Positions 17,948-39,414 of a DNA stretch of 64,000 bases are shown here, piece after piece; position 1 is the stretch's first letter; each line of letters begins with the position of its first letter. The notes below the pieces were generated by a model, which was not told where the DNA came from, did no database searches, and was given only the letters and a program-made list of their open reading frames with translations. The DNA lies in NCBI GenBank assembly GCA_964642015.1, contig CAZXLF010000001.1, positions 432,168 to 496,167 on the forward strand, in the 5' to 3' direction. This DNA is from an uncultured Planctomycetia bacterium. Lineage in GTDB: Bacteria > Omnitrophota > Gorgyraeia > 2-02-FULL-51-18. The translations under genes were made by a program, and so were the position numbers.

Positions 17948-20191
17948 ATGTCTGAAACGGCACAATACATTTCAATACAGCTCAACGGTGAAAAGCGGCA
18001 GCTGCAGGAAAATAAAACTTTACTGACTCTTTTGGCCGACCTTTCTATTCCCAAGGAAAAGGTGGTCATCGAGGTGAATCTTGAGATCATTTCCAGAGAT
18101 CAATGGGCGGACCATATTTTAAAGGAAGGCGATCAGGTTGAGATCGTACATTTTGTGGGCGGCGGCGCAGAAACCGCGAAGGCCCTTGTGATCGTAGAGT
18201 CGCCGGCAAAGTGCAAGACCATCCATAAATATTTAGGGAACAATTTTGAGGTTGCGGCGTCAATGGGGCATCTTATTGATTTGCCGAGAAGCAAAATGGG
18301 CATCGATATTGAAAACAATTTTGAACCCCAGTATATCGTTGTTAAAGACAGAAAAAAAACGCTTTCTGAACTTAAGAAAAAAGCCAAAAACAAAAAAGAG
18401 ATCTTCCTAGCCTGCGATCCCGACCGTGAAGGAGAGGCGATCAGCTGGCATTTAAAAAACGAACTCGGTAAAGGGAAAAAGGTCTCTCGAGTCGTGTTCA
18501 ATGAAATCACAAAGGATGCCGTGCTTGAAGCTTTCAAACACCCGTCGCATATCGACATGTGTCTGGTGGGTGCTCAGCAGGCCAGGCGTGTGCTGGACAG
18601 GCTTGTGGGTTATTCGTTGAGCCCGCTTTTATGGCAAAAGGTGGGCCGCGGTTTGTCAGCGGGCCGTGTTCAATCCGTGGCGCTTCGTCTGATTGTTGAT
18701 CGCGAGAGAGAGATACGCGCTTTCGTGCCGGAAGAATATTGGAGCATCGAAGCCGAGCTTAAAAAAAAGAAAGGCCATTCCCATTCATTTATTGCGAAAC
18801 TTGAGAAAATTAATGACATCAAGGCGGAGATCAAGAATGAGTCTGAAGCCAAAAGACTTTATGAAAAAATAAAAACGAATGCTTTTGTCGTCAAAGAAGT
18901 CAAACAGCAGAAGAAAAAAAGGAATCCATATCCACCGTACACAACGAGCAAACTTCAGCAAGCTGCTTACAATGTTCTGCGTTTCCCTGCTTCTAAAACG
19001 ATGAAGATCGCTCAGATGCTTTATGAAGGCGTTGAGATTGGGGATGAAGGCAGCGTGGGACTCATCACCTATATGAGAACGGACTCGGTGAGGATATCCG
19101 AATCCGCGCTCAAGGAGACGCGTGAGCTGATATTAAAAAATTACGGAAAAGAATATCTGCCCGAAAAACCCAATTTTTATAAGGCCAAAAAAGAGGCGCA
19201 GCAGGCGCATGAAGCCATTCGTCCGACCTCTGTGAAACGCCGTCCGAAGGACATCGAAGAATATCTTACGCCGGACCAGTTTAAACTTTACTCTTTGATC
19301 TGGCAGCAGGCCGTATCAAGCCAGATGACGCCTGCGGTGATTGCGCAAGAAACTGCTGACATTGCCGCCGGAGAACACCTATTCCGTTCGACCGGAAGCC
19401 GTTTGGAGTTCAAAGGTTGTCTTGTGGTTCAGGAAAAATCCGAGGAGCAGGACAATCCGTTGCCCCCTCTTGCTGTTGGCGAAGTTCTTGATCTCTTAAA
19501 GCTGGAGAATCATCAGCATTTTACAAAACCGCCGGCGCGTTTCACCGATGCATCGCTTGTCAAAGCGCTTGAAGAAAGGGGGATCGGCAGGCCCTCGACT
19601 TATGCGCCCATCATCCAGACTCTGACCGGAAGAGATTATATCCGCAGAGAAGGCGGAAGCTTGGTGCCTACTGATCTGGGGATATTGGTGACGGATCTTC
19701 TGGTCCAGTATTTTTCGAAGATCCTTGATTTTGAATTTACTGCGAAGATGGAAGAAGAGCTCGATGAAGTGGAAGAGGGTAAAGCCGAATGGGTGGGCGT
19801 CGTGAAAGAGTTTTACGGTGTGTTTAGCGGTCAAATGGACCACGCAAAGACCACGATGCAGACTGTGAAGCGCCAAGAAGAGCCGACAGACGAAATCTGT
19901 GATCTTTGCGGAAAGCCGATGGTCATCAAATGGGGCCGGCGGGGAAAATTCATGAGTTGCTCAGGATGGCCCGGGTGCCGAAATGCGAAGTCTATTCCGA
20001 CAGCCGTGGTTTGTCCACAGTGTCAGATTGGCAAGCTTGTTGCGCGTCGCGCGAAATCCGGCCGAGGACGCACATTTTTTGGCTGCACCAAATACCCCGA
20101 TTGCACTTTTATGACCAACCGGTTGCCAAAAGCTGAGGGGGACGCAAAAGACGCAGGGGCAGACTCGCAAGAATCGCCGGCAGCGGAGTGA
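17948..20191 (+). CDS. topA: DNA topoisomerase I carrying an in-frame N-terminal ThiS/MoaD-like sulfur-carrier (beta-grasp) domain
   Basis: Residues 1-75 resemble E. coli ThiS as recalled from memory and end in '...GDQVEIVHFVGGG', a ThiS-type Gly-Gly terminus. With no stop codon it continues into the TopA TOPRIM N-terminus 'KALVIVESPAKCKTIHKYLG...MGHLIDLP'. The TopA body has the active-site Tyr region and two C-terminal Cys4 zinc ribbons. 747 aa. Confidence 0.9.
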   Translation: MSETAQYISIQLNGEKRQLQENKTLLTLLADLSIPKEKVVIEVNLEIISRDQWADHILKEGDQVEIVHFVGGGAETAKALVIVESPAKCKTIHKYLGNNFEVAASMGHLIDLPRSKMGIDIENNFEPQYIVVKDRKKTLSELKKKAKNKKEIFLACDPDREGEAISWHLKNELGKGKKVSRVVFNEITKDAVLEAFKHPSHIDMCLVGAQQARRVLDRLVGYSLSPLLWQKVGRGLSAGRVQSVALRLIVDREREIRAFVPEEYWSIEAELKKKKGHSHSFIAKLEKINDIKAEIKNESEAKRLYEKIKTNAFVVKEVKQQKKKRNPYPPYTTSKLQQAAYNVLRFPASKTMKIAQMLYEGVEIGDEGSVGLITYMRTDSVRISESALKETRELILKNYGKEYLPEKPNFYKAKKEAQQAHEAIRPTSVKRRPKDIEEYLTPDQFKLYSLIWQQAVSSQMTPAVIAQETADIAAGEHLFRSTGSRLEFKGCLVVQEKSEEQDNPLPPLAVGEVLDLLKLENHQHFTKPPARFTDASLVKALEERGIGRPSTYAPIIQTLTGRDYIRREGGSLVPTDLGILVTDLLVQYFSKILDFEFTAKMEEELDEVEEGKAEWVGVVKEFYGVFSGQMDHAKTTMQTVKRQEEPTDEICDLCGKPMVIKWGRRGKFMSCSGWPGCRNAKSIPTAVVCPQCQIGKLVARRAKSGRGRTFFGCTKYPDCTFMTNRLPKAEGDAKDAGADSQESPAAE

Positions 20192-22416: not shown

Positions 22417-23397
22417 GTGAAAAAAGTCCTTGGTTCAGCATTATCATCGATCTATCGGGTCGCGCTTGTTACTAGTCAGGCAAGTTATCGCACGGTTCCT
22501 TTCAGCATCCATAAGGTGCCGGCGCGGGTGATCAGCATAGGAAATATCACATGGGGCGGCACTGGAAAAACACCTCTTGTGGCCATGCTTGCCCGTGAAA
22601 TCTCGGCCTCCGGAAAAAAAGTGGTCGTGTTGACGCGTGGCTACGGCAAAGACGAGGTAGCCGAGCTTAAGAAAAAATTACCAAATATACCTATTTTAGT
22701 TGGACGCGACAGAATTAAGACCGCCCAAGAGGCCGTTAAAAAACATCAAGCCGAAGTGATCATCTTGGATGATGGGTTTCAGCACATTCGGCTCCACAGG
22801 GATGTTGATGTTGTGACGATCAACGCTACGGAACCTTTTGGTCCCGGGGGGCTTATACCGATCGGCACTCTGAGAGAGCCGTTAGAGCATCTTTCGCGCG
22901 CACATATTTTCGTGCTTACCAAAACCAATATCGGTTCGAAAAACGTGCATTGGATTAAGCAGAAACTTGTATCGATCAAACCGGAAGCTGTTATTTATGA
23001 AGCTGTGCATCAGCCGATCCAATTAATGGATTTTCGGCGGAACCGTTATGTGCCGCTTCACGAGATTAAAAACAAAAAAATCGGAGTTATCTCCGCCATC
23101 GGCGATCCTTATTCTTTTGAAAAAAGCTTAGAAAATCTCGGCGCCGAGATCCTTTTTACCGCTCGTTATGACGACCATCATTTGGTAAGCGAAGCGGAGT
23201 TTTCAGATTTTCTCAAACGGTGCAAAGAAGTGGGAGTAAAAGACGTTGTAACAACGGAGAAGGATTTCTACAGAATGGAACCGTTTTTTAAGAAAAAGAG
23301 ACCCAAAGATATACATAACTTCAATTTTTTGGTCCTGCAGATAGAATTTCAGGTGGACGATGAAGAAGATTTTATTCGAAGATGCCTTAATCCTTAA
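22417..23397 (+). CDS. lpxK: tetraacyldisaccharide 4'-kinase
   Basis: 'ISIGNITWGGTGKTP' P-loop signature of LpxK. 326 aa. Confidence 0.9.
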   Translation: MKKVLGSALSSIYRVALVTSQASYRTVPFSIHKVPARVISIGNITWGGTGKTPLVAMLAREISASGKKVVVLTRGYGKDEVAELKKKLPNIPILVGRDRIKTAQEAVKKHQAEVIILDDGFQHIRLHRDVDVVTINATEPFGPGGLIPIGTLREPLEHLSRAHIFVLTKTNIGSKNVHWIKQKLVSIKPEAVIYEAVHQPIQLMDFRRNRYVPLHEIKNKKIGVISAIGDPYSFEKSLENLGAEILFTARYDDHHLVSEAEFSDFLKRCKEVGVKDVVTTEKDFYRMEPFFKKKRPKDIHNFNFLVLQIEFQVDDEEDFIRRCLNP

Positions 23398-25330
23398 TAC
23401 GGTCAAGTTTCTTCGCGCTCTTGTCCGTGTCCTTCCTTTAAGGGTCGCTTTCGCCGCCGCAAGTTTTATAGGGTCGGCCATCTATATTTTTAGCAAGCGC
23501 CGGAAAATTGCGTATAAAAACCTTCGTGCTGCATTCTCGAAAGAAATGGAACGTGCCGAGATGAAGAAGATTGCGCGTTCATCGATGAGGAATCTGGCGA
23601 TGTGCGGTGTTGAACTGCTGAAATTCCCGGAAATGAACCGGCGATACATCGAAGAAAACGTTCGGATCATCGGCACGGAAAAGATTAATGAAAAGCTAAA
23701 AGAAGGGAGAGGCGCGATATTTTTGACTGCGCATTTCGGTTGCTGGGAGCTTCTGAATTTGGCTTCAAATCTTGTCGGTTATCCGATGGTCGCTTTGGCC
23801 CGTACACAAAAGCATCCGAGGTCTGATGAATTTTTAAATTCCCTTCGCACATCCAAAGGAAACCAGGTCATCCGCAAAGGCATGCCGGTGCGCGAAATCC
23901 TTAAAGCATTGAAAAGCGGTAAGATCGTCGGCATGTTGAGCGACCAGGATGGGGGAAAGAACGGGACTTTTGTGAAGTTCTTTGGCAGGCAGTCCTCGAG
24001 CCCGAGCGGTGTGGCAACCTTCGCCTTGCGTACCCATGCCCCAATATTCCCTGTTTTTATATTCCGTGAAAAGCTAGGTAAACACCGCGTTGAAGTGGGT
24101 GATCCGCTCATCCGGCCCTCAGATGAGTTGCCTCCCGAGGAAGCGGAACGCAATATCCTTCAACAGTTTGCCAAGATTCTTGAGTCAAAAATAAGAAAAG
24201 CGCCTGACCAATGGCTCTGGGCGCATCGGCGATGGAAATCCACGCCAAATCGCTCAATAGTTATTTTGAGCGACGGAAAGCAAGGGCATCTTAACCAGTC
24301 GCTGGCGGTCTTGAATGGTGTCTGCAGAGAACGTGAGTCGCAGTCTGTTCCGCCAGAGTACACGAACTCGAAGATCATCAACGTGCATTTTAAAAATGAT
24401 TTTTCCAAGCATCTGCTGAACATCATGTCCATTTTATTTTTTGGGCATATACCATTCAAACCATGGGTAATGAAAAATTTTTTAAGTCAGGATTGTTACG
24501 CTGAAATTATGAAAAGCTATGCGGATATCGTTATTTCATGCGGTTCGTCTATTTGTGCTGTGAACCTGCTTGTCAAACATGAGAATCTTGCAAAATCGAT
24601 CGTGATCATGAAACCGGCCGTGCCTTCCTATCATTTTGATGCCGTAATCGTGCCTAGGCATGATAAAATAAAAGGAAAAAATAATATTTTTTTTACCCAG
24701 ACAACTTTATCGAATATCACTGAGGAAATTTTAAGCACTGAATCCGATAAGCTGCTTGACCGACTTTCAATATCGCGTGACCGCAAGCGTATCGGTTTTT
24801 TGGTCGGGGGAGACACGTTGAAGGTCAGATTCTCGCAGAGTTATTTCACAAAACTTCTGCAGGAATTGAAGCGTTTCAGCGTGGACACCGGCGCTTATCT
24901 TTTGGCTACATCATCGAGACGCACGCCTCGATGGGCGGACGAACTCTTAAAAAAGACGTTGAACGAAAAAAAACAATGTCCACTTTTGGTGATAGCAAAT
25001 GAGTCCAACCAAAAAGGCGTTGTGTCGGGGATATTGGGTCTTAGTGATCTACTGGTAGTATCCGGCGAATCCATGTCGATGGTTTCCGAAGCGATCGCTT
25101 CACACAAACCGGTTGTGGTATTTTTACCTTCGCAGAAAGGGCGTCTTAAGCCGAAACATGAGGATTTTTTGAATAGAATGTTCGATCAAAAACTCATCGC
25201 AAAAGCCACGCCTGAAAACCTTTATCAAATTATCAACGAACAAATGTTATCGAATAACGGACGGCATGCCGAATCGTTGATCTCGCAAGATCGTGAAGCA
25301 GTGTCGAATGCCGTAAGGCGGGCCATCTAA
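23360..25330 (+). CDS. lpxL: lipid A biosynthesis lauroyl/myristoyl acyltransferase (LpxL/HtrB family) fused to a C-terminal Elm1/DUF1022-like domain
   Basis: Residues about 1-300 carry an N-terminal TM helix, the 'HFGCWE' HX4E acyltransferase motif and the 'DQWLWAHRRWK' ending typical of LpxL. Residues about 300-656 carry 'IVILSDGKQGHLNQSLAV', 'ISCGSS', 'LVGGD', 'LATSSRRTP' and 'VSGESMSMVSEA' motifs reminiscent of the Elm1 / DUF1022 family. Confidence 0.8.
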   Translation: MKKILFEDALILNTVKFLRALVRVLPLRVAFAAASFIGSAIYIFSKRRKIAYKNLRAAFSKEMERAEMKKIARSSMRNLAMCGVELLKFPEMNRRYIEENVRIIGTEKINEKLKEGRGAIFLTAHFGCWELLNLASNLVGYPMVALARTQKHPRSDEFLNSLRTSKGNQVIRKGMPVREILKALKSGKIVGMLSDQDGGKNGTFVKFFGRQSSSPSGVATFALRTHAPIFPVFIFREKLGKHRVEVGDPLIRPSDELPPEEAERNILQQFAKILESKIRKAPDQWLWAHRRWKSTPNRSIVILSDGKQGHLNQSLAVLNGVCRERESQSVPPEYTNSKIINVHFKNDFSKHLLNIMSILFFGHIPFKPWVMKNFLSQDCYAEIMKSYADIVISCGSSICAVNLLVKHENLAKSIVIMKPAVPSYHFDAVIVPRHDKIKGKNNIFFTQTTLSNITEEILSTESDKLLDRLSISRDRKRIGFLVGGDTLKVRFSQSYFTKLLQELKRFSVDTGAYLLATSSRRTPRWADELLKKTLNEKKQCPLLVIANESNQKGVVSGILGLSDLLVVSGESMSMVSEAIASHKPVVVFLPSQKGRLKPKHEDFLNRMFDQKLIAKATPENLYQIINEQMLSNNGRHAESLISQDREAVSNAVRRAI

Positions 25331-27468
25331 TGAATGTTCTTCAAATGTTACCTGAACTGAAATCAGGCGGTGTTGAACGAGGCACGATAGACCTCGCTAA
25401 ATATCTTCAAAAAAATGGGCATAAGGCCGTTGTTGTTTCGGCAGGAGGTCCGTTGACCGGAGATCTGACTTCGGCCGGAGTGACGCATTATGCATTGCCG
25501 GTGCACAAAAAATCCCCGTTTTCAGTGTTCCATTCGGTGCGTGCGATCTCAAAGATCGTCAAAATAGAGAATATAGACATTATCCATGCCCGCAGCCGTG
25601 TTCCGGGGTTGATAGCTTTTTTTGTCAGTCGCAAAACTCACGTGCCATTCGTGACCACTTGCCATGGATTTTATAGCAAGCATATTTTAAGCCGGATCAT
25701 GGGTTGGGGAAAACTGGTGATTGTCGCAAGCCACATTATCGGCAAGAGAATGAGGGACGATTTCGGCGTGCCCTATCATAAGATAAGGTTCATTCCCAGG
25801 GGAGTGAATCTGGAAGAATTTAAATGGCGTCCCATTGACCCGGAAAGTTTTAAAAAACAGATCGTGATAGGTCTTATCGGCAGGATCACTCCGATCAAAG
25901 GCCACCCGCTTTTTTTGAAAGCTATGGCAAGGGTGACGCGCGTATACCCGAATATCAAGATCCAGATAGTCGGAGATTCTCCTAAGCCTCAGTATCGAGA
26001 AGAGCTTTTGATGTTAACTCGGCGTCTCGGGATTGCTCATGCTGTGGAGTTTTTGGGGACCAGATACGATATTCCGGAGCTCCTGAGCCGTATGAGCTTA
26101 TTGGTTGTGCCATCTGTTGGAGAAGAGGCATTCGGACGCGTGGCGATCGAGGCAGGCGCTTGCGGTGTCCCCGTTGTAGCGACGCGGATGGGCGGGTTGG
26201 TCGACATCATTGAGAATGAAAAGGATGGTTTATTGGTCCAGCCTGATGATCCGTCCGCACTGGCGGAAGCGGTCATAAAACTGTTGAGAGATCCGGAGCT
26301 TGCATCAAAACTTGCTTTGTCGCTTCGTCAAAAGGTTGAGCGGGAATTCAACCTTGAAAACATGTTTGAAAAAACGATAGCGGTTTACCAGGAAGCGATT
26401 TCAACAAAAAGAATATTGGTGATTAAATTAAGTGCGGTCGGCGATGTGATTTTGAGCATTCCATCGATTCGCGCATTAAGAGCGAAATTTCCCGGCGCCT
26501 GGATTTCAGTGCTTGTCGGAAGAAAATCCAGGAAGATCATCCGCAACTGCCCCTATGTGAACGATACGATCGTCTACGAGGATTCGCCAGGTCAGAAGAA
26601 TTATACCGGAACATTCAGGATGGCGCGCCTTCTAGCGAAGGAGGATTTTGATATTGTTGTGGATCTTCAGAATAATAAGGTCAGCCATTTGCTTTCTTAT
26701 CTTTGCGGGGCCAGGGTCCGCGTCGGACATGATAACCGCAAATGGTCTTTTCTTTTGAATAAGAAAGCAAAGAATTCTAATAACGGTTCTTTGCCGCCTC
26801 TTGAGCATCAGTTCAAGGTGCTGAAGCTTTTAGGGCTTGAAACTTTTGACAAGCGTCTTGAGCTTTGGACCGAAAAAGAAGAGGACCGTGCTGTCGCTGA
26901 ATTTTTACAGTCCCAATGGGTTTCTCCCAGCCAGACGCTTGTAGGGATCAATCCGGGATCATCATTACGCTGGCCGACAAAACAATGGCCGATCGAGAAC
27001 TTTGCCAAACTTTGCGATGAATTGGCCAAAAGAAATATTCGTGTGGTGATTACGGGTTCCGCGGAAGATTCAAAAATTGCTGCAGAATTGTTCCGTTTGA
27101 CAAGAAATAAGCCCATCAATGCCATTGGTAAAACTTCAATCACAGAGCTTGTGTCTTTGATCCGGCGCTGCCAGGTTTTCATTAGTTCTGATTCGGCGCC
27201 AATGCATATTGCATCCAGTGTTGATGCCCCTCTCATCGCAATATTCGGTCCTACGGACCCTAAACGGCATTTGGTTCCTCCGTCGCGTTATCAAGTATTC
27301 TGGAAAGAAGTGCAATGCAGTCCATGTTACTTGCGTAGCTGCCCCATAGGTCTCTTGTGTATGAAGCGCATCGGTGTTCAAGAAATACTCGACTCCGTGC
27401 TTTATTTCATAAAAGAGAAGCGGCCAACAAAGCTTGGCGAAGAAAATCTAGCCGCGCAGCTTTTCTAG
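25330..27468 (+). CDS. bifunctional glycosyltransferase: N-terminal GT4 (GT-B, EX7E) domain fused to a C-terminal GT9 ADP-heptose:LPS heptosyltransferase domain
   Basis: N-terminal half has 'GGVERGTIDLAKYLQKNGH' and 'EEAFGRVAIEAGACGVPVVATRMGGLVDIIENEKDGLL' (GT4 EX7E). C-terminal half starts 'ILVIKLSAVGDVILSIPSIRALRAKFPGAWISVLV' (GT9 signature). The end of the C-terminal half carries 'PMHIASSVDAPLIAIFGPTDP' and the Cys4 tail CSPC...C...C. Confidence 0.8.
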   Translation: MNVLQMLPELKSGGVERGTIDLAKYLQKNGHKAVVVSAGGPLTGDLTSAGVTHYALPVHKKSPFSVFHSVRAISKIVKIENIDIIHARSRVPGLIAFFVSRKTHVPFVTTCHGFYSKHILSRIMGWGKLVIVASHIIGKRMRDDFGVPYHKIRFIPRGVNLEEFKWRPIDPESFKKQIVIGLIGRITPIKGHPLFLKAMARVTRVYPNIKIQIVGDSPKPQYREELLMLTRRLGIAHAVEFLGTRYDIPELLSRMSLLVVPSVGEEAFGRVAIEAGACGVPVVATRMGGLVDIIENEKDGLLVQPDDPSALAEAVIKLLRDPELASKLALSLRQKVEREFNLENMFEKTIAVYQEAISTKRILVIKLSAVGDVILSIPSIRALRAKFPGAWISVLVGRKSRKIIRNCPYVNDTIVYEDSPGQKNYTGTFRMARLLAKEDFDIVVDLQNNKVSHLLSYLCGARVRVGHDNRKWSFLLNKKAKNSNNGSLPPLEHQFKVLKLLGLETFDKRLELWTEKEEDRAVAEFLQSQWVSPSQTLVGINPGSSLRWPTKQWPIENFAKLCDELAKRNIRVVITGSAEDSKIAAELFRLTRNKPINAIGKTSITELVSLIRRCQVFISSDSAPMHIASSVDAPLIAIFGPTDPKRHLVPPSRYQVFWKEVQCSPCYLRSCPIGLLCMKRIGVQEILDSVLYFIKEKRPTKLGEENLAAQLF

Positions 27469-27483
27469 GAAGAAGAAATTTTT

Positions 27484-28254
27484 ATGAAAAGAATTGTGTT
27501 CGTTTTCGCGGTTTTGTTCGCACTTTATGCGTTTGGCAGATCGATTTATCAAGTCCCGGTGCTGATGTATCATCATGTGGGGGACGTTGCTGAGAACTCG
27601 AAGCTTAACGTAAGCCCTGAGACTTTCGAGCGCCAGATGGAATTTTTGAAGCTCCACCATTATCGCGTCATGTCGTTCGAAGATTTGATCGGGCATATCC
27701 GGATAGGCCAAGGGGTCCCGCGAAACACGGTTGCGATCACGTTTGACGACGGCTACCTTGATAATTTTGTCAACGCATTCCCGATTTTAAAGAAAATGGA
27801 TTTTCCGGCGACGATTTTCATGATCACCGGGAACATCGGAAAAAAAGGATGGCTGAGTGAAGAGGATCTTAGGATATTGGACTCGTCGGGGATCTCGATC
27901 GGCAGTCACACTGTCAATCATGTTTTTTTACCTCATCTTAAAAGAGAAGACGCCATTTTTGAGATCAGCCAGTCACGCAACCAATTAGAAAAGATCCTGG
28001 GTCATCCGGTATTTTTATTCAGTTATCCTGCCGGAGGCGTGACGGAGGATATCAAAAAACTTGTCATGCAGGAAGGCTATCACGGCGCTGTTACGACGAA
28101 TTACGGTGATTCCAAAGATGATCTTTATGCATTTCGTCGTGTGAAGATCACGGAAAATGACGGAAATCTTTTTAGCCTTTGGGCTAAAGTGAGCGGCCTC
28201 TATTCTTTCGGTCGACGCCGTGTCAAAATGGAAACGGAAGGGATGGTCGTTTAG
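27484..28254 (+). CDS. secreted polysaccharide deacetylase (NodB-homology / CE4 domain)
   Basis: Signal-peptide-like N-terminus. 'AITFDDGYLDNF' motif 1 (TFDDG) and His motifs 'SHTVNH'. 256 aa. Confidence 0.8.
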   Translation: MKRIVFVFAVLFALYAFGRSIYQVPVLMYHHVGDVAENSKLNVSPETFERQMEFLKLHHYRVMSFEDLIGHIRIGQGVPRNTVAITFDDGYLDNFVNAFPILKKMDFPATIFMITGNIGKKGWLSEEDLRILDSSGISIGSHTVNHVFLPHLKREDAIFEISQSRNQLEKILGHPVFLFSYPAGGVTEDIKKLVMQEGYHGAVTTNYGDSKDDLYAFRRVKITENDGNLFSLWAKVSGLYSFGRRRVKMETEGMVV

Positions 28255-28256
28255 GT

Positions 28257-29282
28257 TTGGGACCCCGTATCTTGATCGTGAACGTGAATTGGATCGGCGA
28301 TGTTTTATTCTCTACACCGGCGATCCGCGCGATCAAAAAAAGATATCCTAAAAGTTTTTTAGCCTGTCTGGTCCCAAAACGTTGCGTGAATATTTTGAAC
28401 AATAATCCGTACCTTGACGAGATCATCGTAGGGGAGGATCGGGCGCCGTTTTACGCGCTGTTCAAGCATATGCGGATGATCTCCGCTCTCAGGCAAAGGC
28501 GATTTGACAGCGCTATATTTTTTCACCGCTCAAAAACAAGGGTCTTGTGGGCTTGGTTGGCCGGTGTACGCGAAAGAGTCGGTTACCAAGACCCGGGTAA
28601 AAAGCGGCTTTTGACCAAGTCGTGCCCCCGACCCGGAACAGAAATCCACAAAACAGATTATTTTTTGCGTCTTTTAGAATTTTTGGGCATACCTGCTGAT
28701 GGACGGGAACCCGATTTTTATCCACGTAAGGAAGCGCTGCCTGAACTTGCGGAGCTTCTGAGGGGTCACGGAATCCTGCCCGAGGATAAATATATCGTTG
28801 TTCATCCCGGAGGGAATTGGGATCTTAAACGCTGGCCATCGTCCTATTTTTCGGAGTGGATAAGACTTTTCATAAAAAGATCGAATTGGAAAGTCATTCT
28901 TTGCGGAACGATCAGTGAAGAATCGCTTTGTAAGAAGATCTTGTCGGAAGTTCAAAATCCGAAAGTCATTTCTTTTTGCGGAAAAACTTCAATTGATACT
29001 TTAGCGCTTTTGTTAAAAAACGCCGAGTTGCTTGTCTCCAATGATTCTGGTCCGATCCATTTGGCCGCCAGTCAGGGGACCGAGATCATCGGTCTTTTTG
29101 GGCCAACGACGCCGGCACTTACGGGCCCCATATCTCGAGGCCGGTCGTTGATATTAAGAAAAGATGTGGGCTGTGAAATCCCTTGTTATTTCCGTTCCTG
29201 CGACCATCGTGTCTGCATGGAATGGCTTAAGCCAGAAGAAGTCCATGAGAATACTTTGAAATTTTTGGATCAGAGATCATGA
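28257..29282 (+). CDS. LPS heptosyltransferase (GT9)
   Basis: 'RILIVNVNWIGDVLFSTPAIRAIKKRYP' N-terminus. 'VSNDSGPIHLAASQGTEIIGLFGPTTP'. C-terminal CEIPC...C...C motif. TTG start. Confidence 0.85.
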   Translation: MGPRILIVNVNWIGDVLFSTPAIRAIKKRYPKSFLACLVPKRCVNILNNNPYLDEIIVGEDRAPFYALFKHMRMISALRQRRFDSAIFFHRSKTRVLWAWLAGVRERVGYQDPGKKRLLTKSCPRPGTEIHKTDYFLRLLEFLGIPADGREPDFYPRKEALPELAELLRGHGILPEDKYIVVHPGGNWDLKRWPSSYFSEWIRLFIKRSNWKVILCGTISEESLCKKILSEVQNPKVISFCGKTSIDTLALLLKNAELLVSNDSGPIHLAASQGTEIIGLFGPTTPALTGPISRGRSLILRKDVGCEIPCYFRSCDHRVCMEWLKPEEVHENTLKFLDQRS

Positions 29283-31330
29283 CGCCGGACGCTAAAGAGA
29301 TCCGCAGGATCCTTGTTGTGACGCTTTCCAATCTTGGGGACGTGATCCTAACGTTGCCTGTGCTCCAAAGCCTCCATGCTAATTTTCCCAAAGCGGAATT
29401 GCATGTCGTGGTCAGCGCCTCAGCTGCGGAAGTTTTTCAAGGCGATGGACGGATCGCAAAAGTTATTCTGTACGATAAAAGATCCGACTGGCGCAAAAAG
29501 ATCGATTTCATCAAAGGAATCCGCCGAGAAAAGTATTCTTTGATCGTTGATCTCAGACGTTCATTGATAGGGTTATTGGGCGGATCAAGGTTCAGAAATT
29601 CTTATTTTAATTTTTCGCAGCGCACAATACACAGAACAAAGAAGCACTTAAGTGCACTTGACAATATTCTTGGAAGGAATACCGCTGATATCTCATTTCT
29701 TAAGGTCTCGTCACCGGAGACCCTCGCGAAGAACGCGTATATTAGAAACGATCAGAAACTTGTTGTAGCGTCCGTTGGCTCCAAAAGTGATGTCAAAAAA
29801 TGGCCCGCTGAATATTTTGCGGGACTGCTGGATCGATTAGCTGTGAATGATCATTGTCAGATCGTGTTGATCGGCGATAAGCACGACGTGCCGGATGCGC
29901 AAAAGGTGAGAAGTTTGATGCAAAGCTCGGTCATTGATCTTTGTGGGCGCACAAACTTTAAAGAATTATGCGGGGTTTTGAAGATGGCGTCGCTTGTGAT
30001 CACGAACGACAGTGCACCGCTTCATATTGCGGATTCCTTAAAAATACCTGTCTTAGCCATTTTTGGACCAACCGATCCCAGAAAGTATGGACCCCGTCAC
30101 GCTGGAAGCATGGCTGTCCGTAAAGATCTTTTTTGTTCGCCTTGCGAGAAGGCACAGTGCCGCTATGACCATGAATGCATGAAGGATTTGGGTATTGAGG
30201 AGGTTTACCAGAAGTGTTTGCAGATATTAAACGATGAATTTCAGCCGAAAAATCTAAAGATCCTGATGATCCGGTTGGACAGGATCGGTGACGTGGTCCT
30301 GTCGCTGCCGGCCGTTCAAGCGGTCCGCGACCGCTTTCCCAACGCGACTATTTCGATGATGGTGCGCCCCTATACGCGTGCGATCGTGGACGGTCATCCG
30401 GCGATTGACGAAGTGATCGAATACGATTATGAAAAAAATGGAAGACACGGAGGCTTGATCGGTAATATAAGGTTCTTGCGCGAGATCATCAAAAGGCATT
30501 TTGATATCGCGTTCATTTTGAATCCAAGCAACCGTTCTTACAATCTGCCCTTTTTAGCGGGCATCCCTTACAGAATAGGCTTTAGGTCAAGATTTCCTTT
30601 TCTTTTGACCCAGAGCATTTCTGACAGAAGGCATGAGGGGTCGAAGCAGGAATCCGAGTATACATTGGATATCGTAAAAGCTTTTGGTATCGATCAGCCG
30701 GCAACTCTTCCAAAATTAAATATAACTCCTTATGACAATCTTTTACTGTCTAAGCTCTTGGAAAGGCGCGGCTGCACATCGACAGCCGAGCTTATTGCTT
30801 TGCATCCAGGCGCCAGCTGTGCGTCAAAAAGATGGCCCGTGAAGTATTTTGCCGAACTGGGAAAAAAAATCCTTGATGAAACATCTTATCAAATCGTGGT
30901 GATCGGCGGACCTTATGAAAAATCGACAGGCGAAGTCTTAAAAAAAGAACTTGGCGAGCGATCGACTGATTTGACCGGAGCACTTGATCTAAAAATGCTC
31001 TCGACGCTTTTAAGTCGCTGCAGACTTTTAATTTCGAACGACTCGGGGCCCGTGCATATTGCCGCAGCCGTTGGCACCAAGACGCTGACGATTTTCGGAA
31101 GAAATCAAGCCGGCTTGAGCCCGGTCCGTTGGCGCGCGTTGGGTAAGGGGCATGCTGTGATCCAAAAAGATGTGGGTTGCGTCGTATGTCTTGCGCATCG
31201 TTGCGCGATAAACTTTGAATGTCTTCGGGCCATTGAACCTGAAGAAGTTTATAAGATTTTTAGTCAAATGATCTCGGGCAGTGACCGGAAGTTTTTGGAT
31301 TTGGAACAGACGGCCACGGCCGGGTTTTAG
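29279..31330 (+). CDS. tandem (duplicated) LPS heptosyltransferase: two complete GT9 modules in one 683-aa polypeptide
   Basis: Module 1 is 'ILVVTLSNLGDVILTLPVLQSLHANFP ... ITNDSAPLHIADSLKIPVLAIFGPTDP ... CSPCEKAQCRYDHEC'. Module 2 is 'ILMIRLDRIGDVVLSLPAVQAVRDRFPNA ... ISNDSGPVHIAAAVGTKTLTIFG ... CVVCLAHRCAINFEC'. Confidence 0.85.
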   Translation: MTPDAKEIRRILVVTLSNLGDVILTLPVLQSLHANFPKAELHVVVSASAAEVFQGDGRIAKVILYDKRSDWRKKIDFIKGIRREKYSLIVDLRRSLIGLLGGSRFRNSYFNFSQRTIHRTKKHLSALDNILGRNTADISFLKVSSPETLAKNAYIRNDQKLVVASVGSKSDVKKWPAEYFAGLLDRLAVNDHCQIVLIGDKHDVPDAQKVRSLMQSSVIDLCGRTNFKELCGVLKMASLVITNDSAPLHIADSLKIPVLAIFGPTDPRKYGPRHAGSMAVRKDLFCSPCEKAQCRYDHECMKDLGIEEVYQKCLQILNDEFQPKNLKILMIRLDRIGDVVLSLPAVQAVRDRFPNATISMMVRPYTRAIVDGHPAIDEVIEYDYEKNGRHGGLIGNIRFLREIIKRHFDIAFILNPSNRSYNLPFLAGIPYRIGFRSRFPFLLTQSISDRRHEGSKQESEYTLDIVKAFGIDQPATLPKLNITPYDNLLLSKLLERRGCTSTAELIALHPGASCASKRWPVKYFAELGKKILDETSYQIVVIGGPYEKSTGEVLKKELGERSTDLTGALDLKMLSTLLSRCRLLISNDSGPVHIAAAVGTKTLTIFGRNQAGLSPVRWRALGKGHAVIQKDVGCVVCLAHRCAINFECLRAIEPEEVYKIFSQMISGSDRKFLDLEQTATAGF

Positions 31331-31336
31331 ACAGAA

Positions 31337-32179
31337 ATGCCGAAGGACTCTCCGCTGTTTCGTCAAAGAATATTGCGGTTATTTTTGATCGTTTTTCTGT
31401 TGTCCACCGCAGGTTTTTTTCAAACCGCATCATCCTCGAAAAATTTTTCCTCCAAGAAAAAAGAGGCAGCCGAGCCGAGCAGCCTCGGAGCGCCTCTAAA
31501 AACTTTCGAAGTGGGCGAAGCGCTTGTATTCGACGTGTCTTGGATGGGCATACCGGTAGGTTCCGGCACTCTCCAAGTGAAAGAAAAGGTAAAAATTCAT
31601 GGACGCGAGGCTTTTCATGTCGTGGCGATCGCACAGACCAACGATTTTTTGACGAAGATCTACCCGATCTATGATGAGATCCACAGTTTTATAGACACGC
31701 AGGAGTTTTATTCGCTGGAATTCCGAAAAAATCTGAAAGAAGGGCGTTACCGGGCGGATGAAGTGGTTGTTTATGATCACGAGAATAAAATAGCTCATTA
31801 CGAATCTTTTCGCAGCCACGATAAGAAAGAGATCCAAATTCCCCCAAAAGTCCACGATCTGATCAGTGCCTTTTTTTGGTTTAGACTCCAACCCTGGGAA
31901 GTTGGTAAAAGTCTCCATACGGTCGTGAATAGCGAAGAGCAGAACTGGGATCTTGAAGTAGATGTTTTAAAGCAGGAGACAAAGAATCTCAGAGGCGGTC
32001 GGGTAATAGAAACCGTGCTGGTCGAGCCCAAAACGCGCTTAAAAGGCGTCTTTTACGATCGCGGGAGGGCATGGGTCAACTTCACAATCGATTCAAAGAG
32101 GGCCCCGATTTGGATCAAGCTTCAGACTCCATTCGGGCCGATGATCGGCGCGTTGCGTGCGAAAGGCTTAAGCGATTGA
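31337..32179 (+). CDS. hypothetical secreted/periplasmic protein, possibly DUF3108 family
   Basis: N-terminal hydrophobic signal segment 'LRLFLIVFLLSTAGFF'. Beta-rich composition. 280 aa. Assignment to DUF3108 is from memory of family motifs and is uncertain. Confidence 0.45.
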   Translation: MPKDSPLFRQRILRLFLIVFLLSTAGFFQTASSSKNFSSKKKEAAEPSSLGAPLKTFEVGEALVFDVSWMGIPVGSGTLQVKEKVKIHGREAFHVVAIAQTNDFLTKIYPIYDEIHSFIDTQEFYSLEFRKNLKEGRYRADEVVVYDHENKIAHYESFRSHDKKEIQIPPKVHDLISAFFWFRLQPWEVGKSLHTVVNSEEQNWDLEVDVLKQETKNLRGGRVIETVLVEPKTRLKGVFYDRGRAWVNFTIDSKRAPIWIKLQTPFGPMIGALRAKGLSD

Positions 32180-33230: not shown

Positions 33231-33968
33231 ATGGACGCGATAGGGATCATCCCTGCCAGATACGGATCTACCCGTTTTGAAGGAAAGGTACTGAAAGACC
33301 TTTGTGGAAAACCGGTCATTCAGCATGTCTATGAGCGCGCCAAAAAAGCAAAGACACTGGATGATCTTATCATTGCGGCCGATGATGACAGGATCATTAA
33401 GGTCGTCGAGGGTTTTGGCGGGAAAGTGGTGTTTACCTCTAAATCTCATTCGACCGGCACGGACCGCTTGACCGAGGTCGTCAATGAGATCGATGTGCGC
33501 ATCGTTGTGAACATCCAGGGCGATGAACCTCTGATCAATCCTTTGGTGATCGATGATCTTGTGAGAACCATGCAAGATGATTCAGAGATCGTCATGGCGA
33601 CCGTCGTGAAGAAAAGTCATTCGGAGGAAGAATTTAGAAGCCCGGATGTTGTGAAGGCGATCGTCAGCGATCAGAATTACGCGCTTTATTTTTCTCGTTC
33701 GCCGATTCCCATTTTTTTGAAACCAGGGCCCGAAAATTATTTCTATAAACACATCGGGATTTATGCTTACAACAAGGATTTTTTATTCACGTTCAAAAAA
33801 TTGCCCGTTTCTTATCTTGAGGCAAATGAAAGATTGGAACAACTTCGTGCGCTAGAAAATGGTTACCGTATCAAGGCCATCGAAACAAAATTTGAGACGG
33901 TCGGCGTCGATACTCCACAGGACCTTGAGCTGGCAAAAGAAATTTTAGAGAAAGAGCAAAATGGCTAG
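33231..33968 (+). CDS. kdsB: 3-deoxy-manno-octulosonate cytidylyltransferase (CMP-Kdo synthetase)
   Basis: '[33 protein letters not shown]' N-terminus and 'NIQGDEPLI' motif. 245 aa. Confidence 0.9.
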
Positions 33969-35576: not shown

Positions 35577-36422
35577 GTGAAAACCGCCGAAATGAAATCT
35601 CGCAGCGTGCAAATAGGAAAAATAACAGTTGGTCTCGGTAAGCCGTTGGTCCTTATTGCCGGACCCTGTGTCATTGAGAATGAGAAAAGCGCGCTTCGCC
35701 ATGCTTTTGCGATCAAAAAGATCGCCGATCGTTTGAAAATCCCGTATATTTACAAATCGAGTTATGACAAAGCCAATCGGAGCTCATCTGATTCCTTCCG
35801 CGGTTTGGGAATGAGGGAAGGTTTACAAATTTTGAATAAGATAAAACAAGAAACAGGGCTCCCGATCCTGACCGATATTCACGGCGTTGAGGATGCCTAT
35901 AAAGCTTCTGCAGTAGCGGACATACTGCAGATCCCGGCTTTTCTTTGCCGTCAAACGGACCTCGTCGTTGCAGCCGCGAAGACCGGTAGAGTTGTGAATG
36001 TGAAAAAAGGACAATTTTTGGCTCCGTGGGACATGAAGAACATCGTTCATAAAATAGAGAAAGCAGGAAGTCACAAGATCCTTTTAACCGAGCGCGGGAC
36101 ATCGTTCGGATACAACACGCTTGTCAGTGATTTTCGCGCCATTCCCATCATGAAAGAACTGGGTTATCCGGTCATTTTTGACGCGACGCATTCGGTGCAG
36201 CAGCCCGGAGGGCGCGGAACAAGCTCCGGCGGAGAAAGGCGTTTTGTGCCGATTTTAGCCCAGGCGGCCGTTGCGGTGGGTGTGGATGGAGTATTCATGG
36301 AAGTGCATGAGGATCCCGATCACGCGCCAAGCGATGGCCCCAACATGGTCCCTTTAAAGGATCTCGAAGCGCTTTTAGAACGTCTTCTTAAATTGAATCG
36401 GGCGGTGAAAAATGCCGATTAA
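35577..36422 (+). CDS. kdsA: 2-dehydro-3-deoxyphosphooctonate aldolase (Kdo-8-phosphate synthase)
   Basis: '[10 protein letters not shown]' motif and KDOPS-type '[12 protein letters not shown]' motif. 281 aa. GTG at 35577, or ATG at 35592. Confidence 0.9.
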
Positions 36423-37371
36423 GATAGCAAGAAAGATCATCAAGGTAGAGCGTGACGCGTTATCGGAGTTGATCTTAAAGATCGACCGGAATTTCGAGAA
36501 GGCCTGCGAACTTATTTTAAAATCCAAAGGCCGCGTGGTTGTGACCGGAATGGGTAAGCCGGGATTTATCGCTCAGAAGATCTCGGCAACGTTATCTTCG
36601 ACCGGAACACCCTCTCTTTTTCTCCATCCGGCGGAGGCGCTTCATGGCGACCTTGGCCGCGTTGTAAAAGAGGATGTGGTCATCGCTTTTTCCAACAGCG
36701 GTCAAACTGAAGAGATATTGAAATTTTTGCCGGTCGTTAAGAAGATCGGCGCCAAACTGATCGCCGTGACAGGTAATACCAAGTCACTTTTGGCGCGGTT
36801 CAGCGATATTACGCTGGATGTGAGCGTTAAAAAAGAAGCGTGCCCGCTTAATTTAGCTCCAACGGCTTCGACGACCGCGATGCTGGCTCTGGGAGATGCG
36901 CTGGCTTTGACTTTATCGGAGAAAAAAGGCTTCAAACAGGAGGATTTTGCTTTTTATCACCCTGGCGGGAATATCGGAAAAAAACTTTTATTGAAAGTTT
37001 CCGATATTATGCGCACCGGCAAGGACCATCCGGTAGTAAAGGAAACTATGAAGGTGAAAGAAGTTCTTTACAGGATCACTAAAGCCAGAGCCGGATCCGC
37101 TTCGGTGATCGATAAAAAAGGACGCTTGGTCGGGATTTTTACTGACGGAGATCTGAGAAGAAATCTTAAATCCGGTGAGCGTATTCTTGAAAGTCCTTTA
37201 AAAAATGTGATGACAAAAAATCCTATCACAGTCTCGGCGGATAAACTCGCTGTTGAGGCTTCAAGCGTTCTGCGAGGAAAAAAGATCGATGAATTGCCGG
37301 TTGTTGACCGGCATTACCGGCCGGTGGGTCTTTTGGATGTTCAGGATCTGCTTAAAGCAGGTATCGTTTAG
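36412..37371 (+). CDS. kdsD: arabinose-5-phosphate isomerase (SIS domain plus tandem CBS domains)
   Basis: SIS domain '[29 protein letters not shown]' and two C-terminal CBS domains. 319 aa. Confidence 0.9.
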
Positions 37372-37379
37372 ATAAGGTT

Positions 37380-37913
37380 TTGATGATGTCGGATGATCTT
37401 AAAGAACGGATTTTGAAGGTCAAACTTCTGATGTTGGACGTTGACGGTGTCTTGACCGACGGGCGGATCATTTACGGTGATTATGGAGATGAACTCAAAT
37501 TTTTTAATGTTCAGGACGGCTTCGGTCTTGTGATGTTGCGCCGTGCGGGCATTCCGATCGTGGCGATCACTTCGAAAAAATCCCGCGTGAACCAACGCCG
37601 CGCCAAGGAACTTAAGATCTCCAAGCTCTATCAGAACGTGCGCGACAAACGGAAACTTTTTGAGAAGATCGTGAAAAAAATGAAATTGAAGCATGAGGAA
37701 GTTTGTTTTATAGGGGACGACCTGATGGATATTCCGGTTCTTTCCAGGGTCGGTTTTGCCGTGGCTGTGCATAATGCCGTGGAAGACGTGAAAGAATCGG
37801 TGCATTATATTACGCTGAAAAGCGGGGGACACGGTGCGGTGCGTGAAGTGACGGACCTTATCATGAAGACCCAGCATAAATGGCATGACGCAACAGAAAG
37901 GTATTTTCAATAA
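37380..37913 (+). CDS. kdsC: 3-deoxy-D-manno-octulosonate 8-phosphate phosphatase (HAD superfamily)
   Basis: 'LLMLDVDGVLTDGRIIY' HAD motif I and 'GDDLMDIPV' motif. 177 aa. Confidence 0.85.
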   Translation: MMMSDDLKERILKVKLLMLDVDGVLTDGRIIYGDYGDELKFFNVQDGFGLVMLRRAGIPIVAITSKKSRVNQRRAKELKISKLYQNVRDKRKLFEKIVKKMKLKHEEVCFIGDDLMDIPVLSRVGFAVAVHNAVEDVKESVHYITLKSGGHGAVREVTDLIMKTQHKWHDATERYFQ

Positions 37914-38711
37914 ATGGCCGGAGGATTTCAGCGTAACCGTTTCATTAATTTTTTTCTTGTCGGCTGTTTGGCCGCCGCGGCCTTATCGATCTTTCTTTTG
38001 ACACATGAAAGAAAGCTTAAGGAAGAAGCGGCCGAGGCACGTAAAAAAAGAGAGCCCACTGCGGCGAGCGTCGATCAAAGTTTGCAAAAATTCAGTCTTA
38101 CCGGTTTTGACGACAAGGGAAAGAAATTTTGGAATCTGGAAGGCGATAAGGCCCGCATTGATCCGGGACAGGTCGTATTTTTGGACCAAAATGTAACGCT
38201 CAAACTGCAGGACACGACTGTGATCAAGACGGATCACGTGCAGTGGTCACAGGACGGCGGTGTTTTAAGGACCCCCTCACAGGTTTTTGTGACCCATCAG
38301 AACGCCGATGTGAAAGGCCGTGGCGCTGTGGGCAGATTGAATGATAGCTTTATACAGCTGAACCGCGATATTCAAATGCTGATCAACAAATCAACGCTTT
38401 TGACCTGCACGGGCCCGCTTAAGATCTATTACAAGCAAAATAAGATGATATTTTATCGTAAGGTGAAAGTGGTCGATGACAGAGGAGTTTTGAAAGCCAA
38501 CCGCATGGACGTGATCTTCGATCCTGATCAGAAAAAAGTAACGCAGATCATTGCGATCGGGAATGTCACGATCGAACGAGGCACCGATACTACGCATTCT
38601 CAACGCGCGATCTATTCTTTGGCCACCGGTTCTGTGCGCTTGGAAGGCAATCCGGAGATCACGCTGCATAAAGAAAGCTCTAAACTGCTAGATGCCCCTC
38701 TTAGAAACTAA
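37914..38711 (+). CDS. lptC: LPS-transport periplasmic protein of the LptC/LptA (OstA-like beta-jellyroll) family, N-terminally membrane-anchored
   Basis: Single N-terminal TM helix '[20 protein letters not shown]' followed by about 240 aa of beta-rich sequence. It occupies the canonical lptC-lptA slot between kdsC and lptB. At 265 aa it is longer than a typical LptC, so it may cover both LptC and LptA roles. Confidence 0.6.
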
Positions 38712-39414
38712 ATTATTAAGGAAGTCTTACAATGGCCGCGCGGTCGTGAATGGCGTCGATATTTTCATCAATCCCGGCGAGATCGTAGGGCTTCTGGGGC
38801 CCAATGGCGCAGGAAAAACGACCACTTTTTATATGGTCACAGGCATTGTCAAAGCTGACAGCGGAAGCATTATGTTTGATCACCGCGATGTAAGCAAATA
38901 TCCGATCCATAAAAGGGCCCAGTTGGGAATAGGATACCTTTCTCAGGAACCGTCTATCTTCAGAAAATTGACCGTCGAGGAAAATATTTTAGCGATCCTT
39001 GAAACACTGGACCTTCCCAGGCGCGAGCGTGCTAAACGGCTCGAGCAACTTTTGAATGAATTAGGCATCGCGCATCTGAGAAAATCAAAAGCGCTTACGC
39101 TTTCAGGCGGAGAGCGCCGTCGCCTGGAGATCACGCGCGCTTTAGTGACTCATCCTTTGTGCATTTTGTTGGATGAGCCGTTTTCGGGGATCGATCCGAT
39201 CGCCGTCTCCGATTGCCAAAACCTTATCCGCGAACTGAAAAACAAAGGTCTTGGGATCCTTTTGACGGATCACAATGTCAGAGAAACTCTGGCAATTACG
39301 GACCGCGCCTATATTATGTCGGAAGGCAAGATATTGATCTCAGGCACGAAAGACGACCTTTTAACGAACAAGGAGGCAAGGCGTATTTACCTAGGCGAAA
39401 AGTTTACGATGTAG
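38692..39414 (+). CDS. lptB: LPS export ABC transporter ATP-binding protein
   Basis: '[40 protein letters not shown]' Walker A. '[15 protein letters not shown]' signature motif. '[12 protein letters not shown]' Walker B. 240 aa. Confidence 0.9.

Follow-up and report, generated by a model that had tools for sequence, protein, structure and literature searches.

We analysed a window of 64,000 nucleotides (nt) from an uncultured bacterium, deposited as a member of Planctomycetia and placed in Omnitrophota by GTDB (assembly GCA_964642015.1, contig CAZXLF010000001.1, positions 432,168 to 496,167). It contains a compact block of four genes that encode glycosyltransferases (GT) of a predicted lipopolysaccharide (LPS) inner-core pathway and a polysaccharide deacetylase (Table 1). 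All four open reading frames (ORFs) are intact, and their coordinates and lengths are exactly those given earlier by a reading made without database searches (the sequence-only reading). The glycosyltransferases are contained in three proteins: a fusion of a GT4 domain with a GT9 module (M1), a stand-alone GT9 module (M2), and a fusion of two further GT9 modules (M3 and M4). Searches with the Pfam models for GT4 (PF13439, PF00534), GT9 (PF01075, cut-off 22 bits) and NodB (PF01522) found each domain where it had been expected. In particular, the second halves of both fusions are GT9, and not some other or degenerate domain, and the single GT4 domain has the EX7E motif in the form E266-x7-E274. 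The three glycosyltransferase ORFs had been described as consecutive and overlapping. The ORFs are there, but the first two are not consecutive, as the NodB gene, correctly noted to be interleaved, lies between GT4-GT9 and M2. The only overlap among them is that between the M2 and GT9-GT9 ORFs, which share 4 nt (ATGA). The start of the GT4-GT9 ORF shares one base with the stop codon of the upstream ORF, and the TTG start codon of M2 lies 2 nt downstream of the NodB stop codon.

Pairwise identity between M1-M4 is 25-30% in end-to-end alignments. PF01075 was found in all four, in agreement with the sequence-only reading. On the other hand, the NDSGP motif is not universal, being (S/N)DSAP in M1 and M3, and the N-terminal (acceptor) domain of M3 is divergent, approximately 13-17 residues shorter than in the other modules, and the least conserved. 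Equivalents of D13, K192 and D261 of Escherichia coli WaaC, which are important by mutagenesis (PMC5713226), are present in all four modules, as seen in the alignment with E. coli WaaC and WaaF. These Asp/Lys/Asp equivalents are invariant across 61-115 homologues. In M3 they are D21, K173 and D244, which together with His249 are invariant in more than 100 homologues; in M4 they are the likewise invariant D338, K517 and D588. The residues E266 and E274 of the GT4 domain are invariant in 61 homologues. All four GT9 modules are probably active.

M1, M2 and M4, scored singly, pass the cut-off of the NCBIfam HepII equivalog model TIGR02195 (134.6 bits). Structural models of the 683-aa and 712-aa fusion proteins, covering M1, M3, M4 and the GT4 domain, were made with AlphaFold2 (AF2). 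The mean predicted local distance difference test scores (pLDDT) are 90.4 and 90.7, and the predicted template modelling scores (pTM) are 0.88 and 0.85, respectively. In Foldseek searches the GT9 modules of these models matched Veillonella parvula 3TOV, E. coli WaaF (1PSW) and WaaC with template modelling scores (TMt) of 0.88, 0.83 and 0.80. The closest solved structure for the GT4 domain is 7MI0, an uncharacterised glycosyltransferase of Rickettsia africae (E 3.6e-51, TMt 0.85). The only GT4 equivalog nominally reached is PelF (cut-off 100): the isolated domain scores 102.8, matching the C-terminal half of the model only, and the whole protein scores 99.6. A side observation concerns the chloroplast NDH subunit PnsB1 ('subcomplex B1'; 9GRX_1, 7EU3_6, 7WFF_a), which is similar to GT9 both by profile (E 3e-7 to 1e-5) and in fold (TMt 0.63-0.71). 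It appears that a heptosyltransferase-like protein has been recruited into a photosynthetic complex.

Table 1. The glycosyltransferase block and the flanking LPS genes. Positions are those of the window; cut-offs are in bits.
Feature	Position	Strand	Evidence
GT4+GT9 fusion protein, 712 aa	25330-27468	+	intact ORF
GT4 (retaining GT-B) domain, residues 1-354 of the 712-aa protein	25330..26391	+	PF13439 100 bits, PF00534 136 bits
GT9 module M1, residues 355-712 of the 712-aa protein	26392..27468	+	PF01075 144.5 bits; TIGR02195 165.9
M1 Cys4 finger CSPCYLRSCPIGLLC, C663/C666/C671/C677	27316..27360	+	sequence read and homologue alignment
CE4/NodB-type polysaccharide deacetylase, 256 aa	27484-28254	+	PF01522 94.9 bits (cut-off 23.1)
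Stand-alone GT9 module M2, entire protein of 341 aa, TTG start	28257-29282	+	PF01075 109.3 bits; TIGR02195 142.9
M2 Cys4 finger CEIPCYFRSCDHRVC, C306/C310/C315/C320, C-x3-C spacing	29172..29216	+	sequence read
GT9+GT9 fusion protein, 683 aa	29279-31330	+	PF01075 in two stretches, 223.2 bits
GT9 module M3, residues 1-322 of the 683-aa protein	29279..30244	+	PF01075; TIGR02195 117.6
M3 Cys4 finger CSPCEKAQCRYDHEC, C286/C289/C294/C300	30134..30178	+	sequence read and homologue alignment
GT9 module M4, residues 323-683 of the 683-aa protein	30245..31330	+	PF01075; TIGR02195 158.6
M4 Cys4 finger CVVCLAHRCAINFEC, C634/C637/C642/C648	31178..31222	+	sequence read and homologue alignment
WaaA	21119-22402	+	Pfam
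LpxK	22417-23397	+	Pfam
LpxL-type acyltransferase fused to ELM1/PF06258, 656 aa	23360-25330	+	PF03279 residues 18-293, PF06258 residues 370-640
DUF3108 protein, signal-peptide-like N-terminus	31337-32179	+	Pfam
Heptose-7-phosphate kinase HldA, 344 aa	32196-33230	+	rfaE_dom_I 397.5 bits (cut-off 345)
KdsB	33231-33968	+	Pfam/NCBIfam
PyrG	between KdsB and KdsA	+	Pfam/NCBIfam
KdsA	35577-36422	+	Pfam/NCBIfam
KdsD	36412-37371	+	Pfam/NCBIfam
KdsC-like HAD	37380-37913	+	Pfam/NCBIfam
LptC/LptA-like protein, 265 aa	37914-38711	+	PF06835 residues 62-153; LptA/LptD_N PF03968 residues 172-253
LptB	38692-39414	+	Pfam/NCBIfam

The gene order starts with TopA and an XerC-like recombinase, followed by WaaA, LpxK and LpxL·ELM1 (here and below the dot denotes a fusion), and then by the block itself, GT4·M1, NodB, M2 and M3·M4. 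Judged by its place between WaaA/LpxK/LpxL and HldA/Kds/Lpt, the block is the candidate set of LPS inner-core glycosyltransferases. The role proposed for it by the sequence-only reading is thus upheld by the flanking WaaA, LpxK and LpxL genes on one side and HldA, KdsB, KdsA, KdsD, KdsC and Lpt genes on the other, and by the HepII scores of M1, M2 and M4. Together with the flanking lipid A, 3-deoxy-D-manno-octulosonate (Kdo) and Lpt genes it forms an LPS supercluster. These surroundings are retained in each genome examined (long contigs L092, L094, L098 and L099), including the upstream order WaaA-LpxK-LpxL·ELM1. The cluster order is the same in two long contigs in which the GT9-GT9 protein has 57% and 41% identity, respectively, to that of the window; in the more distant one (41%) NodB is replaced by a second GT4 gene. 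The remainder of the window consists of housekeeping genes, and no RNA families were found in it (Rfam). The 66 ORFs of at least 150 aa that match protein families are all encoded by the + strand, and all 32 segments of 2 kb show positive GC skew. A 510-kb contig in the public record already encodes both fusion proteins, identical in sequence. The named ones among their relatives come from Candidatus Omnitrophota/Omnitrophica metagenome-assembled genomes (MAGs), where they are annotated as 'lipopolysaccharide heptosyltransferase II'.

The fusions are not artefacts of missed stop codons. The reading frames are open across both junctions (GT4/M1 and M3/M4), and each protein has more than one hundred independent full-length homologue clusters: over 100 with 41-69% identity for GT9-GT9, and at least 120 with 52-86% identity for GT4-GT9. 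The fusion state was surveyed by tblastn tiling of species-representative loci, namely the best 80 of 548 confirmed M2 matches; all of these 80 are titled Omnitrophota/Omnitrophica or uncultured Planctomycetia, Planctomycetales or bacterium MAGs. The order M2-M3-M4 is retained in approximately 70 of the 80 loci. M3·M4 is a single frame without a stop codon in 15 loci, among them 11 of the 12 closest to the window, whereas approximately 50 loci have M3 and M4 as two genes. Fusion of GT4·M1 was observed in all eight loci with a visible junction and in all long contigs. A HMMER search of 1.84 billion representatives produced approximately 25 collinear tandem clusters and then many stand-alone proteins of 325-350 aa, matching M3 only (39-43% identity) or M4 only (41-47%). 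Module orthology in contigs L098 and L099 was checked by BLASTP. L098, syntenic with the window, encodes M2, M3 and M4 in three distinct genes that overlap. In L099, an Omnitrophota MAG, M2·M3 is fused, M4 is separate, and a fifth GT9 gene and then NodB follow.

Our own first reading, that the M3·M4 fusion is obligatory throughout the phylum, was ruled out by the split loci, by L098 and L099, and by the stand-alone orthologues. The same observations speak against the 'physically channelled assembly line' proposed by the sequence-only reading. Covalent linkage is not required, since split and differently fused versions exist. We conclude that adjacent, translationally coupled genes merge repeatedly and that the fusions do not represent one special machine. 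The genes are densely packed, many with overlaps of 1-4 nt, and this packing is a likely substrate for repeated gene fusions. The phylum thus provides a natural experiment, in which the same four orthologous modules are unfused, M3·M4-fused or M2·M3-fused in related genomes. The fusion pattern is a pointer to which of the enzymes act on consecutive intermediates.

The fusions had also been called unusual. However, further GT9 fusions, both tandem and mixed, are found repeatedly in other uncultured lineages and on an alphaproteobacterial plasmid. Multi-module GT9 proteins elsewhere include a GT4+GT9+GT9 protein of 1081 aa and a double GT9 protein in Candidatus Wallbacteria (UniRef A0A2N1PV16). 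A 730-aa candidate comes from a record titled as a Capsulimonadaceae MAG, and further architectures are GT9+HAD+GT9 and O-antigen-ligase+GT9. Plasmid p5 of Gemmobacter fulvus (NZ_CP076366.1 112329-114542; 4330-6543 in our locus L095) encodes a 737-aa 'GT9 family protein'. The N-terminal half of this protein is GT2-like by eye, and its C-terminal GT9 contains a long-loop Cys4 (CAPCYIAMAEQCHRAMAC); the gene lies near rfaE1 and a HAD hydrolase.

All four GT9 modules end in a tail of the form C-x2/3-C-x4-C-x4/5-C, just before the last helix. These tails, reported by the sequence-only reading, are directly read in the sequence and conserved in homologues. All four tail cysteines of M1 are 100% invariant in 115 GT4-GT9 homologues, and those of M4 in 112 homologues; in M3 they are 99-100% invariant in 112 homologues. 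Cysteines outside the tail vary in the M1, M3 and M4 homologue sets. The conservation of the tail cysteines in these alignments is far beyond chance. Among 79 complete M2-like loci, Cys4 is present in 69, of which 53 have exactly C-x3-C-x4-C-x4-C and the others have close variants. Ten weaker paralogues have a Cys-free loop in place of the finger. Separately, the finger-less paralogues L061, L070, L073, L074, L076, L078 and L081 have, in the same place, a shared loop Y(V/I)P(x)GY(S)VP(F/W)(F/Y)G...GW. This suggests that the loop may be a defined non-metal replacement of the finger.

The tail is not specific to this lineage, as had been considered. It was sought outside Omnitrophota by tblastn on a plasmid and chromid collection, and the loci found were then read. 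GT9 proteins of Neisseria gonorrhoeae (CSPCFKRECPLGHTDC), Aeromonas caviae (CRPCFKRTCKFGHLKC) and Cupriavidus (CRYCYKSTCPQGHHRC) and waaF of Paraburkholderia (CRWCYRSVCPHGHHAC) contain the tail. Variants of Cys4 with longer loops were observed in GT9 of Fusobacterium, Gemmobacter, Agrobacterium and Acidibrevibacterium; in the Ilyobacter GT9 locus no Cys4 was found on reading. Among stand-alone representatives related to M3 or M4, 80 of 97 have Cys4. In E. coli WaaF an equally long loop free of cysteines takes the place of the finger, and WaaC has a deletion there. HMMER alignments to every solved LPS-type GT9 end just before the tail; 3TOV, for which the alignments end at residue 305, would on this basis alone also have no finger.

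Among solved relatives, the only one with four such cysteines is TibC, described as having a 'unique iron-finger', in which Cys339, 342, 358 and 370 bind Fe3+ and which supports dimer and dodecamer assembly (PMC4358343). The C-terminal domains of TibC of E. coli H10407 and of the GT9 modules were aligned. C339 and C342 of TibC correspond to the first CxxC of the tail, and C370 matches the fourth cysteine, just before the last helix; C358 lies within a longer loop specific to TibC. Judging by this alignment, the Cys4 tail is a compact version of the TibC insertion, positionally homologous to it. The tail is most likely a structural metal site, binding Zn or Fe. The structural metal site suggested by the sequence-only reading is thus plausible, given the TibC-like position. 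The tail is not a peculiarity of these modules, as it is widespread in GT9. A review of heptosyltransferases does not mention cysteine, zinc or fusion proteins, and a literature search for zinc and CXXC found nothing on a Cys or metal motif in LPS heptosyltransferases.

The deacetylase contains the NodB motifs, seen by inspection: the Asp-Asp pair in (T)FDDG and His-x3-His in HTVNH (metal/catalytic). It scores below the equivalog cut-offs of PgaB (62 vs 322 bits) and IcaB (55 vs 248). The nearest PDB entries are Bacillus 4V33 and 4HD5, streptococcal 6DQ3, IcaB 4WCJ, and PgaB. These relatives, namely the polysaccharide deacetylases of Bacillus and Streptococcus, IcaB and PgaB, work outside the cytoplasm. 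The NodB protein of the window has a strongly hydrophobic N-terminus (Kyte-Doolittle 2.64 over residues 4-18); of two homologues checked, the L099 protein shows the same, and the L092 gene as called reaches only 1.2. The slot of NodB varies: it precedes M2 in the window and follows the GT9 genes in L099, and a GT4 gene takes its place in L094 and L098. Because of the hydrophobic N-terminal segment and the variable slot, NodB is probably a periplasmic accessory, exported or membrane-anchored. Membership in a cytoplasmic assembly line, as in the sequence-only reading, is unlikely in view of these features and of the extracytoplasmic-type relatives.

Taken together, the preferred reading is that the window contains the core-oligosaccharide glycosyltransferase block of an Omnitrophota LPS supercluster, in which the M3·M4 fusion is optional, Cys4 is an old GT9 feature, and NodB is an exported accessory; we assign to it a probability of approximately 80%. 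The block would encode five GT-B enzymes, one retaining (GT4) and four inverting (M1-M4). Their most likely site of action is the cytoplasmic side of the inner membrane, where they would extend the Kdo-lipid A supplied by WaaA, LpxK and LpxL. ADP-heptose is probably the donor of at least some GT9 steps, HldA being encoded just downstream. Across the phylum the modules appear to form an ordered orthologous set: GT4·M1, GT4 and/or NodB, M2, M3, M4. In the lineage of the window, M3 and M4 genes that were tightly packed and overlapping would have merged to encode the 683-aa polypeptide. Fusion may provide equal amounts and co-localisation of enzymes catalysing successive steps, and would not be obligatory. 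The finger is predicted to bind Zn or Fe and to stabilise the C-terminal lobe, with a possible role in protein-protein contacts. The Cys4 knuckle, old and widespread in GT9, would have been lost from enterobacterial WaaC and WaaF. NodB would de-N-acetylate a hexosamine on an exported envelope glycan, be it LPS or another polymer.

Several observations weigh against parts of this reading. M3 falls below the TIGR02195 cut-off and matches the model with its C-terminal domain only, and no module reaches the HepI (185.3 bits) or HepIII (170.2 bits) equivalog cut-offs. Since HepI and HepIII are not reached and M3 fails HepII, assignment of individual steps is guesswork; HepI/II/III roles, use of heptose by all four GT9 modules and a tri- or tetra-heptose product can only be conjectured, as the sequence does not reveal donor specificity. 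None of GmhA, GmhB, HldC and HldD is encoded in the window, the kinase being the only ADP-heptose gene there. Heptosyl transfer from ADP-heptose to Kdo-lipid A is proposed from gene context, with HldA nearby and WaaA, LpxK and Kds genes on either side of the block. The fusion of GT4·M1 wherever its junction is visible is compatible with a functional need for this particular fusion. Ten Omnitrophota GT9 paralogues and four tandem proteins have no Cys4, so that it is dispensable for the fold, and the metal itself is predicted only by alignment with TibC.

The alternatives can be weighed against the same data. One possibility, unlikely but to be taken seriously, is that at least one GT9 module is not an LPS heptosyltransferase and transfers another sugar or uses a non-LPS acceptor, for example a protein, as do bacterial autotransporter heptosyltransferases (BAHT) such as TibC. 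CAZy family GT9 also lists LPS N-acetylglucosamine (GlcNAc) transferase activity. M3, which fails all heptosyltransferase equivalog cut-offs and has a divergent acceptor domain, is compatible with this possibility, as are the absence of a HepI-like module by score, the finger common to the modules and the protein-modifying TibC, and the single ADP-heptose pathway gene, a kinase, beside four GT9 modules in the window. However, M1, M2 and M4 pass TIGR02195, an N-terminal beta-barrel is missing from the GT9 modules, and no autotransporter gene lies in their neighbourhood. The 683-aa protein scores 25 bits with the TibC/Aah model TIGR04414 against a cut-off of 200, and its match to the 4RB4 PDB profile has E = 1. 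The GT9 modules begin directly at the first Rossmann strand and have LPS genes as neighbours, which is not the BAHT arrangement, and the lipid A, Kdo and Lpt genes that enclose the block in every genome examined argue against a role outside LPS. It is highly unlikely that one module, most probably M3, is a dead pseudo-glycosyltransferase serving as a scaffold or acceptor-binding partner of its fused neighbour. The shortened and poorly conserved N-terminal domain of M3 could be so explained, but its catalytic residues, listed above, are invariant, and its orthologues persist as stand-alone genes, which is less likely for a mere scaffold of M4.

Two further explanations concern the fusions themselves. 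In one, they form an obligatory, physically channelled megasynthase that hands the glycolipid from site to site. The linkers are very short (approximately 2-8 residues), and together with the high pTM this suggests a fixed geometry between modules. The GT4/M1 linker comprises approximately 2-5 residues, helix 342-358 leading straight into strand 361-365 in the AF2 model, and the M3 finger sits approximately 25 residues ahead of the M3/M4 junction. The fusion of GT4·M1 in every case with a visible junction also fits channelling. On the other hand, high pTM is no proof of substrate hand-over, and a rigid megasynthase is at variance with the domain opening and closing required by GT-B enzymes (PMC5713226). 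As most Omnitrophota species loci have M3 and M4 as individual genes, M2·M3 is an alternative fusion and stand-alone orthologues are common, this explanation seems distinctly unlikely. Finally, the possibility that the fusions result from an overlooked stop codon, from a frameshift or from contig chimerism is negligible and was rejected. We found no support for it; the close relative L004 has M3 and M4 separate, a state that is either real or due to a sequencing error there. The frames are uninterrupted at both junctions, the independent full-length clusters for each fusion come from different samples, and identical proteins are already public.

The basic picture of LPS core synthesis is not changed by the preferred reading, that of a core-oligosaccharide block with an optional GT9-GT9 fusion. 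The modules are all ordinary members of known families, and the proteins were public under a generic name. What is new is the documentation of alternative fusions of an ordered module set within one phylum, and of a TibC-type metal finger that is common among LPS-type GT9 enzymes and that the enterobacterial model enzymes lack. Many GT9 proteins, including the N. gonorrhoeae and A. caviae homologues, have a probable metal finger homologous to that of TibC, and its absence makes the structures of E. coli WaaC and WaaF atypical in this respect. The finger may matter for inhibitor design and for enzyme expression. No chemical analysis of Omnitrophota LPS was found in the literature. A more far-reaching and, in our opinion, doubtful conjecture is that the finger is an ancestral Fe/Zn oligomerisation element of all GT9. 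The Omnitrophota fingers would then unite the modules as a 'core synthase', and the M3·M4 and M2·M3 fusions would be covalent snapshots of back-to-back finger contacts of the TibC-dimer type. If this were true, most non-enteric bacteria would assemble their LPS inner core by means of metal-dependent heptosyltransferase complexes, hidden by the E. coli paradigm.

Some flanking genes are fused or variable as well. In each of the four related long contigs GT4-GT9 is likewise preceded by the LpxL·ELM1 fusion; the ELM1 ('mitochondrial fission') half of the window protein has no NCBIfam or PDB sequence match. The DUF3108 slot is occupied by DUF3108 in L092 and by a different, 312-aa protein in L094, and the slot is absent in L098. 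A single protein matching both LptC and LptA/LptD_N is also present in L092, L094 and L098, and the 265-aa protein of the window may be an LptC-LptA fusion. Topoisomerase I (17948-20191, + strand) has an N-terminal ThiS/ubiquitin-like domain (PF02597, residues 10-73), and the same is observed in L092. The neighbourhood in L099 contains a separate 67-aa ThiS gene in place of the topoisomerase-fused ThiS, which makes ThiS-topoisomerase another variable fusion in the phylum.

Among characterised systems, the GT9 modules are most similar to E. coli WaaF (1PSW), WaaC (2GT1, 2H1H, 6DFE) and WaaQ and to V. parvula 3TOV, with which they have in common the GT-B/GT9 fold (TMt 0.80-0.88). Equivalents of the catalytic Asp13, Lys192 and Asp261 and the LPS gene context are also common to the modules and to E. 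coli WaaC and WaaF. However, the E. coli heptosyltransferases are single-module proteins, whereas here two of the three GT9-bearing proteins are fusions of two enzymes. TibC/AAH (BAHT; 4RAP, 4RB4; PMC4358343) has a GT9-like catalytic domain (Foldseek E ~1e-8, TMt 0.53) and the four-Cys metal finger at the same point of the C-terminal lobe, before the last helix. The finger loops differ in length, being x15 and x11 in TibC and x4 and x4-5 in the modules. The N-terminal beta-barrel and the beta-hairpin thumb are found in TibC only, which forms dodecamers and glycosylates protein.

Placement of several glycosyltransferase modules for successive steps on one chain is known. WbdA of E. coli O9a is a two-GT4 mannosyltransferase on a single chain, and the capsule multienzyme 8QOY of Actinobacillus pleuropneumoniae, a weak fold match, is built on the same principle. 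These two are polymerases of O-antigen and capsule, whereas here the fusions belong to the inner-core stage, which is not repetitive, and close relatives differ in fusion state. The combination of a GT4 and a deacetylase gene in a core cluster is known from Klebsiella, where the GT4 GlcNAc transferase WabH and the deacetylase WabN introduce glucosamine into the LPS core; by analogy, a de-N-acetylated hexosamine would result. Unlike WabN, the NodB protein described here has a hydrophobic N-terminus, is closest to the Bacillus and Streptococcus deacetylases, IcaB and PgaB, and occupies a slot taken by a GT4 elsewhere. A textbook parallel to the variable fusions is found in the same pathway. Two enzymes of ADP-heptose synthesis are fused in HldE of some lineages and separate, as HldA and HldC, in others. 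In the window the kinase is of the separate HldA form (domain I only) and the transferases are fused, the reverse of the situation in E. coli.

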